Sequence record: PQ505080.1
Reading direction: 5' to 3' (one strand)
DNA: 64,000 nucleotides
Source: Escherichia phage HMD-6
This document shows, piece by piece, positions 18,578 to 24,800 of this stretch. Position numbers and translations under genes: made by a program. A model generated the notes under the pieces. It ran no database searches. It was not told where the DNA came from and saw only the letters and a program-made list of their open reading frames with translations. Each line of letters starts with the position of its first letter. The first letter of the stretch is position 1.

Positions 18578-19246
18578 ATGGCTGTAGCTTATCCTACAAT
18601 ACCAATTCCAGATCTTGAAGATGCAGAAACAGTCCTGAGTGATGACTTCTTGGTTGTCAACCAGACTGATGGGACAAGAAAGGCTAAGATTGACGATGTT
18701 GTCAACGATCTTAGCATTACTAAGATAGTCTATTTCACAGAGGGTGGTTATCTTAAGAGCAAGAAGGACTTTGCTTATGATCCAGAAACTAAGCGCTACT
18801 ACACGTGGAATGGGGATTATCCTAAAATAATCCTCCCAGACTCCACTGTAGAGGGTGCTGGGGGTGTGTCTGCAAATGCCTGGTCTGTTTTTGGTGAGCT
18901 TGCTGCAACTTCTTCTGGCAGAATAGTTGATTACGGATCTATCGGTGGTCAGCTTGATATGGATCTTGAAGTTGCGGATACCTTTAAGGTTCGACTAACT
19001 TCAAATACCACAATCTCTTTTGAAAATCAAACAGAAGGTCTTGAAGGGGTGGCGAGAACCATAACCGTATGCATTACTCAGACCTCTGGCGGCAACAAAG
19101 TCTATTGGCCTGGTAATGTTAAATGGTCCTACGGAAGAGATCCTATCCTAACATTTACAGCTGGTGCAACAGACATTTTCAAGTTGGAAACCTACGACAA
19201 CGGGCTAACTTGGTACGGGGCACTGATTATCGCAGGAGCTATCTAA
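18578..19246 (+). CDS. fibre/spike N-terminal anchor-domain protein
   Basis: 222 aa; first ~110 aa clearly homologous to the N-terminus of the 1479-aa protein at 21881 (DDFLVVNQTDGTRKAKIDDVV vs DDYLVVQQPDLTRRVKIGDVV; DFAYD vs DFAYF). Confidence 0.5.
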   Translation: MAVAYPTIPIPDLEDAETVLSDDFLVVNQTDGTRKAKIDDVVNDLSITKIVYFTEGGYLKSKKDFAYDPETKRYYTWNGDYPKIILPDSTVEGAGGVSANAWSVFGELAATSSGRIVDYGSIGGQLDMDLEVADTFKVRLTSNTTISFENQTEGLEGVARTITVCITQTSGGNKVYWPGNVKWSYGRDPILTFTAGATDIFKLETYDNGLTWYGALIIAGAI

Positions 19247-19247
19247 G

Positions 19248-21870: not shown

Positions 21871-21880
21871 AGGAGAAAGA

Positions 21881-24800
21881 ATGGCTGATATTAAAGTTGT
21901 CAGAATTGAATCTCTTCCTGCCACTACCGCAGTGACAGAGGATGATTACCTGGTTGTTCAACAACCAGACCTGACCCGTCGTGTAAAAATTGGCGATGTT
22001 GTCCATGTGGATGGGACTGTTTCTCATGTAATCTCCTTTAAGGAAGGTGGTAAGTTAAACGGCCCAATGGATTTTGCCTACTTCGAAGAGGAAGACCTCT
22101 ACCTGCGTTGGAAAGGCGAATTTCCGCACACTGTTCCTGCACTGTCTTCACCTTACGCTGATGGTGGGATTACCGATGCTGCATGGATGGTATATACAGA
22201 TCCGTCCTTAAGGGAGGAGCTGGAATCTACCATTGGTGCATCCATGATCATGACAGCCGAAGGGCAGTCTGTCCAGGATGTAATGGATGTTACGGTTCAG
22301 ACAGCCAACGATGCTAAAGCGCTTGCACAGCGGGTAGATTTTGGTACAGTGCATACTGTAGGCGATGTCATTCACCTTGTCAACTTTGTTGGTCCTGCAG
22401 TTATTGAAGAGGGAAGAACCACTAACTACCCTTCTGAAGCAGCTGGTGAAAAATTTCTGAACGGTGTGGTATCTCGTCGTGATACTACAACTGTTGATGG
22501 TATTTTCCGTGGCGCTACCTCAGGAGCCATGTATACCATTGCAGTAACCAACGGTGTAGCAACAACAAAAAGAATAGCACTTCGTGATGAATTTAAACGC
22601 CTGGAGGCAAACAATCCAACAAGAACAGTTATCCGTGCTGGAGATGATTTAAACACAGCAGGGTACTTGCAGCTTGATGCAACAGGCCGTTGGGGTATGT
22701 GGAACCAGCAAACAGCCTCGTGGCAACCTCTTGCTATAGAGCAAGGCGGTACAGGAGCCAGAGATGCCGCTGGAGTCCGTATCAATATCGGTGCTTTCTA
22801 TAAGCAACGTGCAGCCCTTGAGGCAAATTTTAATATCAATAACTTGACTGGTAATCAGGACGGCATATACTACCAGCCTATGACTGCTAATGCAACTGAG
22901 GCAAATGGTTATCCTGCAGGTTCTGGTGCTGGTCACTTGATTGTTTGGCAGAACAATGCTAACGGTGGTACAGGTTGTCGTCAGGAGTACTATCCATTCT
23001 CTAACGTGGATGTTTGGTATTTGAGAACCTATCAGGCCAACACAAACCAGTGGACTGCATGGCAGCCGATGGTCAGACCTCGGAATGATGACACCTTCAG
23101 ATCTCATATCGGCCTTGGTAAAAACAACTCCCCTGCTTTCGGGCACCTTTACTTAGCTCAATACTCAGGAGATGTTAAATCTGCCTCAGGTATTCTCCAT
23201 GGAGATAAATATAACACTGATGGTGTTCTTGAGCATGGTTATAGGATCTACTCAGAGGTAAGAAACGACAATAAGGCTTGGTTAACAATCCACCTGCACA
23301 AAGGTGCAAAAGGATCTGAAACTCATCGGTATTTAGGATTCCGTGAAGATGGTGTGTTAGATTGTCCTAAGTACATGCAGGTTGGGGATCTTACTGGTCA
23401 GCTGACAAACTGGGGACTGGGAGAATGGATTCGTAGTTCAGGGGCAGAAAGAGGGTTCTGGGGTTCCAAGAAAGCCGCTAAGATGGTCGTCTGGGATGGC
23501 GGTATGGATGAATCCGGTAATGGTTCTCTAGAATGGGGTGTTTATAACAACCGGAAGGCCAAGTGGGAGCCTTTACCTCAAGCTGCAGGTGGTACAGGGG
23601 CTACAACCCTGGCAGATGCTCAGAATCTGTTCAAAGTTCCTATAGCTGCGGGTGTCAAAGATTTCTTAACACTGCCAAGAACTGCAGGTATGGAAGATGG
23701 GAAATATTACCCAATCATCGTTAGAACAGATCCGTATTATGCTCCAGCAACTGGCACCGATATTACCCTAGTCACCAGATCGTCATCTGGCGGTGACCCT
23801 ATGAACTGCGCCACCTTACAGTGTCACTATAGAACTGGCGGTTGGACAGATAGAGGGGACTCTTTCTACGGGGTAGTGAATTTCTATCAAAATGAAAAAG
23901 CACTTCTTGGGATGGTTGCTCCAACAAGGGGTAAACAAGAGTATGTTGCTTTCTATGCAGAGGCTCGTGCTTTCCCTGTCAGCATATACGCAAGTAGAAA
24001 TGTTGTCGAAGTGTTTACCAGAGAGCAAGATTATCAAGTCGGCTCTGTAACAAACAATCAGGACGGTGTTAAGTTCGTTGCACCTCTCCAGTCAGCAGAT
24101 TTAAATCTGGCTGTTCTCGGAGATAACAATACCAACACCAGACCTATTGTTGACTTCAAAGGTACCTCTGGGTTCTACACTGGCGGCGGCACACAGTGGC
24201 ACTATATAGGCACTGCTGAACGCTATGCGGTGATGAGCAAAATGAACATGCCTAAAGTCGAACTATGGGCTGACGGTATTGACTATTTGTGCTACGGCAG
24301 TCCTAGAAAGGCGTTATTCTCTAATGCAGGATTCCAGTGTGCATCAGATGGGACAGATGATCTGACTAACGGTACGTTTACCTCTAAATGCGGTAATGGT
24401 GCTGGACTTCAAGGTCAGGCAGAGTTCAGATCTACCCCAGAAGCTGGTCAAGTTATTGTTCGTGATGTTGTAGGTTCCGCTCACAGATTCTACAATTTCA
24501 ACAAAGACGGTACTTTCTCGGCCCCTAGTGGTTTTGTATGCCACACAGGTGCAGACTGGAACAACCAGTTCGGAAATAATAATCCGTCCAAAATACTGGC
24601 TGGCAACGTCAACGGGCCTGAAGGTTCAATGGTTGTTGGCGGGTTGTCTGTGGCGTTTTCTGGAAACTATGCTTTCCAGATGGCAGGTCGTTTAGATCAG
24701 CTGTACACCCGTTCCATAGAGCAGGGTAACCACAGAGCGTGGAACAAAGTTATTCAGCACCGTGGTCAAGGGTTGGGGACTAGCGACCTTAACGATTACA

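Follow-up and report, generated by a model that had tools for sequence, protein, structure and literature searches.

A putative anchor-only adaptor and a separately encoded glycosidase-like protein in the tail-fibre gene block of Escherichia phage HMD-6

The DNA analysed here (the window) is a stretch of 64,000 nucleotides (nt) of Escherichia phage HMD-6 (PQ505080.1), which belongs to an rV5-like myophage of the genus Vequintavirus. Three consecutive genes on its plus strand encode proteins of 222, 865 and 1479 amino acids (aa), the last being a lateral tail fibre. An earlier note, made from the letters alone, had regarded the first ~110 aa of the 222-aa protein and of the fibre as homologous, and had proposed either a two-component tailspike or a recently split gene. 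Positions 17800-26400 matched 122 phage records, in 114 of which a single match covered at least 80% of the query, with identities mostly of 90-98%; nearly all were Escherichia phages of the genus Vequintavirus. The gene order in annotated relatives is tape measure, tube initiator, hub, central spike and a 238-aa baseplate protein, followed by the genes for the 222-, 865- and 1479-aa proteins. Judged by protein lengths and gene order against the published description of rV5 (PMC3606486), these three would correspond to rV5 gp43, gp42 and gp41, respectively. The features of the locus are as follows.

18578..19246, plus strand: gene of the 222-aa putative adaptor, probable counterpart of rV5 gp43 (open reading frame (ORF); phrog_7760 over the full length)
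18578..18712, plus strand: extreme N-terminal segment, residues 1-45 of the 222-aa protein, common to the fibre (inside the BLASTP alignment)
18728..18892, plus strand: Tail_spike_N (PF18668), residues 51-105 of the 222-aa protein (Pfam)
18920..19243, plus strand: conserved C-terminal beta-sandwich (predicted), residues 115-222 of the 222-aa protein; contains the Asp-box-like motif S/TxDxGxTW and is the putative dock for the 865-aa protein
19234..19250, plus strand: junction of Shine-Dalgarno AGGAG (19234-19238), TAA (19244-19246), one spacer base and ATG (19248-19250) (read directly)
19248..21845, plus strand: gene of the 865-aa protein, predicted to be a glycosidase-like (alpha/alpha)6 barrel with inserted beta domains and no anchor; probable counterpart of rV5 gp42 and phi92 gp141 (ORF)
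21881..26320, plus strand: gene of the lateral tail fibre (1479 aa), which is a variable rV5 gp41 allele (ORF; phrog_6578, phrog_1419)
21881..22195, plus strand: anchor region at the fibre N-terminus (residues 1-105), with homology to the 222-aa protein (BLASTP E=3e-18; PF18668)

The homology claimed for the two N-termini was borne out, including the statistical significance on which the claim had been made to depend. Residues 8-105 of the 222-aa protein aligned with residues 7-105 of the fibre at 38% identity in BLASTP (E=3e-18), and Tail_spike_N (TSP1/Gp66 N-terminal domain) was matched by each protein separately above the gathering threshold of 25 bits (residues 51-105 of the 222-aa protein, 41 bits; residues 46-103 of the fibre, 38.5 bits). 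The PDB sequence matches of both proteins lay at the N-terminal regions of CBA120 TSP1, TSP3 and TSP4 and of other tailspikes. The first 37 aa of phi92 gp140 were also similar to the fibre N-terminus (E=2e-8), and the same N-terminal pattern was visible in an alignment of the 222-aa protein, phi92 gp140 and gp71 of Erwinia phage phiEa21-4. Unlike the 222-aa protein, phi92 gp140 (positions 6872-7342 of sequence L003) consists only of the ~40-aa N-terminal segment, or plug, and the C-terminal domain, without Tail_spike_N. Since gp140 matches the initial segment yet lacks Tail_spike_N, the shared region is, by sequence comparison, made up of two parts, a ~40-aa N-terminal segment and a ~60-aa Tail_spike_N head, and the head seems to have been inserted into, or lost from, an adaptor that is conserved in other respects. 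Among the ORFs of the window, neither the shared N-terminus nor the C-terminal domain turned up in a further copy; a match of E=0.006 in an 80-aa ORF (61418-61657) was taken as chance.

Both N-termini plausibly attach to the same kind of virion site, by analogy with CBA120, in which TSP4-N has XD domains to which the heads of other tailspikes dock (PMC8825819). No gp10-like docking platform was recognized by Pfam among the other tail ORFs of the window.

The gene for the 222-aa protein matched phrog_7760 over its full length (E=8e-120) and is 99-100% identical in 96 phage records. Homologue searches for structure prediction gave only 4, 27 and 6 sequences, and the alignments behind the models of both the 222-aa and the 865-aa protein were thus shallow. 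This makes the model of the 222-aa protein unreliable in its N-terminal half (residues 1-114, predicted local distance difference test score (pLDDT) below 50), whereas residues 115-222 were predicted as a beta-sandwich with pLDDT values of 81-90 in most blocks. A Foldseek search with the model independently ranked 24qj first, and in structure the C-terminal domain matched regions that act as connectors in fibre networks.

Searched as a profile against 1.84 billion cluster representatives, the C-terminal domain gave 29,243 matches at E<=0.001. It ended at most 15 residues from the C-terminus in 156 of 177 scanned proteins, some of the long ones carrying tandem copies, and none of the 177 contained a large body of the 865-aa type; the fibre-like proteins bearing the domain were 122-2036 aa long. 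Judged from these sequences, the domain is a module that occurs generally at the C-terminus of fibre-like proteins. The 222-aa protein is more than an anchor for the 865-aa protein, one half of it being this separate and very widespread domain. In three other genomic contexts the gene downstream of the domain-bearing protein was unrelated to that of the 865-aa protein. Microcystis phage Mel-JY34 (positions 4027-5663 of L009) encodes a 267-aa domain protein followed by a 288-aa protein, and Roseobacter phage CRP-603 (positions 3376-7505 of L008) a 471-aa domain protein followed by a 902-aa protein, neither downstream product having BLASTP similarity to the 865-aa protein. The domain may pair with other types of cargo.

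Regarding its classification, Pfam family PF26209 (Phage_phiTE_241_C) was not matched by the 222-aa protein at E<=1. The homologues P0010, P0018 and P0021 carry precomputed assignments to PF26209, but a rescan of P0010 and P0018 gave no such match, and the profile of the C-terminal domain did not match phiTE_241 (positions 26689-29070 of L088), the namesake of the family. The same profile was found at the C-terminus of another protein of phage phiTE, the 1099-aa tail fibre phiTE_215 (positions 4386-7685 of L088), which is encoded beside capsid genes (E=1e-7 to 1e-12). phiTE belongs to the Vequintavirinae and its baseplate has been solved; no pair of a small and a large gene follows its sheath-initiator gene. 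The KP34 gp49 anchor had no sequence similarity to the C-terminal domain in hmmsearch with two profiles.

The model of the 865-aa protein (mean pLDDT 69.9) shows an (alpha/alpha)6 barrel with helices at residues 59-95, 269-305 and 655-860, into which large beta-rich segments are inserted at residues ~100-260 and 329-613. The protein is accordingly predicted to be a glycosidase-like enzyme of the toroid fold. No Pfam family was matched at E<=0.01 and no PDB sequence at E<=1, for which reason the protein was filed as having a glycosidase-like fold and not as a member of a glycoside hydrolase (GH) family; sequence identity to the (alpha/alpha)6 enzymes of GH8, GH48, GH88, GH105 and GH76 was only 8-13%, and its barrel differs in the large beta-rich insertions. 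Neither Pfam nor alignment across lineages revealed an anchor or attachment module. The large proteins of all compared lineages (865-1157 aa) align from their own residue 2-17, with no N-terminal extension; over the first ~45 residues conservation is moderate, a GH..F....G motif included, and this stretch could be a docking segment or part of the barrel alike. PHROG and record annotations describe the 865-aa protein as a tail protein, and the literature on S144 and Rosemountvirus holds no functional data for the large protein.

The two genes meet at a stop-start junction, as the earlier note had read it: between the TAA of the 222-aa gene and the start codon of the 865-aa gene stands a single G, and the AGGAG, 9 nt ahead of this start codon, falls within the last codons of the 222-aa gene. 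Such an arrangement, in which the Shine-Dalgarno sequence is internal, suggests that translation of the adaptor and of its partner is coupled. No slippery heptamer of the type XXXYYYZ was present at the junction. Fusion of the two ORFs by frameshifting or readthrough was ruled out, given the lack of a slippery site, junction types that vary by lineage, and the separate Shine-Dalgarno sequence of each large gene.

The pair occurs far beyond the rV5-like phages. Using tblastn, the 865-aa query matched 524 phage records and the 222-aa query 512 (Escherichia 242 and 240, Salmonella 101 and 98, Vibrio 62 and 58, Erwinia 33 and 33, respectively). Outside Vequintavirus and a few Cronobacter phages, the 222-aa protein was matched only over residues ~110-222. 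A small gene ending in this domain abuts a large gene homologous to that of the 865-aa protein in phi92 (gp140, 157 aa; gp141, 958 aa), Vibrio phage K447, Salmonella phage birk (Rosemountvirus), Erwinia phage phiEa21-4 (Kolesnikvirus), Vibrio phage G1 (Autographiviridae), Cronobacter phage GAP52 and the jumbo phage SPFM19; the pair was also seen in 7-11-like phages. Junctions equivalent to that of the window, with distances of -8 to +5 nt, were found in eight other lineages, each large gene having its own Shine-Dalgarno sequence. A scan of IMG/VR with the alignment of the large proteins gave 71 loci, 67 of them with upstream sequence; in all 67 a separate domain-bearing ORF ended 3-58 nt ahead of the large-protein match, and none was fused. 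The upstream ORFs at pair loci measured 165-568 codons from stop to stop.

Only the C-terminal beta-sandwich of the small protein (~105 aa) is conserved across lineages, and the N-terminal part varies with the virion type. The anchors observed were Tail_spike_N (the window; locus L019), the T7 tail-fibre N-terminus PF03906 (the T7-like Vibrio phage G1), the P2 tail-collar fibre N-terminus (locus L059) and SPRY-containing stretches (loci L071, L074 and L076). Among 22 non-redundant pairs, identity of the C-terminal domain correlated with identity of the large protein (r=0.72; Mantel test, 0 of 5000). As far as these comparisons go, the C-terminal domain and the large protein are inherited together while the anchor is swapped, and the two-gene arrangement is old and widespread. 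Co-inheritance combined with anchor swapping is what would be expected of an adaptor with one virion-specific and one cargo-specific end, and it is incompatible with a recent split. Of the two earlier suggestions it is the two-component tailspike that agrees with the comparative genomics, a lineage-specific anchor and a conserved C-terminal domain always standing beside a large anchor-less protein.

Virion presence, which the earlier note had named as a decisive point for the 222-aa protein, is supported by particle proteomics of rV5, in which gp42 was listed with the tail proteins and gp41 and gp43 with the tail-fibre proteins; the 222-aa gp43 was said to resemble the P22 tailspike in its N-terminus (PMC3606486). 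phi92 gp140 and gp141 are orthologous to genes of the rV5 set gp43, gp42 and gp41. The identity is 42% between gp140 and the C-terminal domain of the 222-aa protein and 35% over the full length between gp141 and the 865-aa protein, and the gene order after the sheath-initiator gene is alike in phi92 and the window. In the 2026 cryo-electron microscopy (cryo-EM) study of phi92, fibre II was matched to no single protein, and gp140 was tried alone, as a fibre-like candidate (PMC13450770). A review table enters the proteins of the phi92/rV5 pair separately as 'tail fibre' and 'glycosidase', and on the question of which genes build which lateral appendage the BASEL paper states that 'it is far from clear'. 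In the literature examined, a two-part unit was not described for the phi92 and rV5 proteins.

In the reading preferred here, to which a probability of roughly 0.6 is given, the 222-aa protein would be an anchor-only adaptor in the tail-fibre network of an rV5-like myophage and would carry the separately encoded 865-aa enzyme. Its first ~105 residues (segment plus head) would be the same attachment module as the start of the fibre, so that adaptor and fibre may use one type of attachment site, located on the baseplate or the fibre scaffold. The ~105 residues at the C-terminal end of the adaptor would hold the 865-aa protein, which has no attachment domain of its own and would presumably act as a glycanase on a conserved surface polysaccharide. 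This binding is the central step, and we infer it from the sequence comparisons; a trimeric state, a docking site shared by the two N-termini and enzymatic activity would likewise belong to the model. Dock and enzyme together would form an old mobile two-gene cassette, which different lineages may have joined to whichever anchor fits their own virion.

The architecture as such is of a known kind. Anchor-only first proteins with a separately encoded enzyme are established in podoviruses of the KP34 type and in SP6, K1-5 and K1E (Latka et al. 2019, PMC6872550). The 222-aa protein shares the anchor-only character, having N-terminal homology to virion-attachment regions, no enzymatic body and a small predicted beta-sandwich as its second half. 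In KP34 group A (gp49 with gp57) and in SP6, K1-5 and K1E (adaptor gp37), as in the 222-/865-aa pair, a short anchor with a C-terminal dock, a putative one in the 222-aa protein, goes with an enzyme on a separate anchor-less polypeptide, and the member of the 222-aa family in Vibrio phage G1 even has the PF03906 anchor of the KP34/SP6-type systems. The differences are that the large partner is a predicted (alpha/alpha)6 barrel here and a beta-helix trimer there, that the two genes are always adjacent here and ~4 kb apart in KP34, and that docking has experimental support in the KP34/SP6 type, whereas for the 222-/865-aa pair it is deduced. The branched tailspike complex TSP1-4 of CBA120 and G7C gp66/gp63.1 are also among the nearest known systems; in CBA120 no head-only adaptor comparable to the 222-aa protein exists, each head being fused to its own beta-helix body. 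The domain pair and the spread of the cassette with exchangeable anchors seem undescribed in the literature searched.

The strongest competitor, with a real but clearly smaller chance of being correct, has the two genes inherited together and their products unattached: the 222-aa protein would be a short fibre with an Asp-box beta-sandwich as a glycan-binding tip, and the 865-aa protein would join the virion through another baseplate or fibre protein. Two observations are compatible with this alternative. The structural alignment of the C-terminal domain covers 91-92 residues, a length that agrees better with XD1, a domain described as a spacer, than with XD2 or XD3, and a docking function is for that reason only suggested by the models; and the wide distribution of the C-terminal module fits a fibre tip as it fits a general dock with many partners. 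The nearly constant location of the domain at the extreme C-terminus of fibre-like proteins, sometimes in tandem, is also where receptor-binding tips sit, its occurrence with unrelated downstream genes points the same way, and the authors of the phi92 study treated gp140 alone. The perfect adjacency to the large gene and the divergence of the two in step while the anchor half is exchanged argue for attachment instead; the large protein has no recognizable attachment module, yet gp42 is found in rV5 particles, and a fibre reaching just ~105 aa past its anchor would be very short.

It is improbable that the C-terminal domain docks the N-terminus of the 1479-aa fibre, or that the homologous N-termini co-assemble, with the 222-aa protein as a branching piece for the long fibre. 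Such a role would resemble CBA120, where heads of the Tail_spike_N type dock on beta-sandwich XD domains of another tail protein, a region to which the domain of the 222-aa protein bears some resemblance, and the fibre gene is probably co-transcribed with the gene of the 222-aa protein. Across lineages, however, the C-terminal domain travels with the large enzyme-like gene and not with a fibre gene of the 1479-aa type, and in phi92 the domain is present in gp140, yet gp141 and then different fibre genes follow.

Very unlikely is a non-structural 865-aa protein, an assembly factor or free enzyme whose gene is merely placed after a fibre gene, as tail-fibre chaperone genes typically are; against this stand the listing of gp42 among the tail proteins of rV5 particles, the tail-protein annotations, and a size (865-1157 aa) and predicted (alpha/alpha)6 barrel unlike those of known fibre chaperones. 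Least credible of all is the recent split, in which an ancestral single tailspike (anchor plus enzyme) was cut by mutation in the lineage of the window: the tight 1-nt junction and the 113 positions ahead of the alignment start of the 865-aa protein in the PHROG 2871 profile (1456 positions) would agree with it, but the genes are separate without any fusion in 8 phage groups and all 67 evaluable IMG/VR loci, the large body is missing from every domain-bearing protein scanned, in every lineage the alignment of the large proteins starts at residue 2-17, the 222-aa protein represents a full family in itself, and each gene has its own Shine-Dalgarno sequence.

The fibre itself is a mosaic. Residues 1-134 resemble tailspike N-termini of Ackermannviridae and podoviruses, residues 1-1048 are common to other Vequintavirus alleles, and residues 1047-1479 (~430 aa) share 33-48% identity with the lateral tail fibres of small siphoviruses, among them VogelGryff and JLBYU10. 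An internal repeat links residues 318-370 (22832-22990) with residues 969-1022 (24785-24946) at 48% identity over 54 aa (E=5e-13), each copy following the pattern GIY.Q..ANAT...YP....AG.LIV..N.AN.GTGC.Q.Y; it was found by targeted comparison and missed by a whole-protein BLASTP self-comparison.

The gene block ends at the following feature.

26659..26678, plus strand: terminator-like hairpin with an 8-bp stem, 7 G-C pairs and a T-run (terminator scan)

As this hairpin is the sole strong terminator-like site on the plus strand within 17000-27500, the genes for the 222-, 865- and 1479-aa proteins and the next ORF, of 110 aa, are probably co-transcribed. The 110-aa ORF (26320-26652; phrog_1361, function unknown) shares one base with the stop codon of the fibre gene and is followed by the hairpin; its position suggests a fibre assembly factor. 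A second, GC-rich hairpin (21849-21867, AGGGGGC-tgttt-GCCCCCT) lies past the stop codon of the 865-aa gene and ahead of the fibre gene's Shine-Dalgarno sequence. It has no long T-run, was not flagged by the terminator scan and could be an attenuator or a transcript-stabilizing element. Elsewhere in the window, in a 690-aa tail protein (34451-36523), Calx-beta and NCTSP_N occur together with a TIM barrel of the 'non-contractile tail sheath protein' type (PF23845, E=3e-80); this protein appears to be the conserved fibre component annotated by BASEL with glycosidase and deacetylase domains. Eighteen GenBank records named 'Campylobacter phage' matched the coliphage region 17800-26400, five of which (MG065635, MG065653, MG065654, MG065666 and MG065676) covered the full 8.6 kb at ~93% identity; these entries give the impression of rV5-like coliphages that were mislabelled or present as contaminants.

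Phages of the Vequintavirinae and of the phi92 type are prized for the breadth of their host range. It is possible, albeit doubtful in its entirety, that the 222-/865-aa pair represents an unrecognized mobile cassette of dock plus (alpha/alpha)6 glycanase, distributed among myo-, podo- and jumbo phages with the anchor half swapped, and that on rV5- and phi92-like virions it forms an unassigned lateral appendage, such as fibre II of phi92, and an unusual organ of receptor binding, with non-beta-helix and perhaps monomeric enzymes on a trimeric stalk. The adaptor-plus-enzyme unit would be a concrete candidate complex for unassigned appendage densities in maps of the rV5 and phi92 type. The boundary between the anchor and the C-terminal domain, at about residue 110, would offer a natural seam for engineering, at the place where evolution has swapped modules, and a very large family of C-terminal fibre domains, of ~29,000 clusters, is defined.

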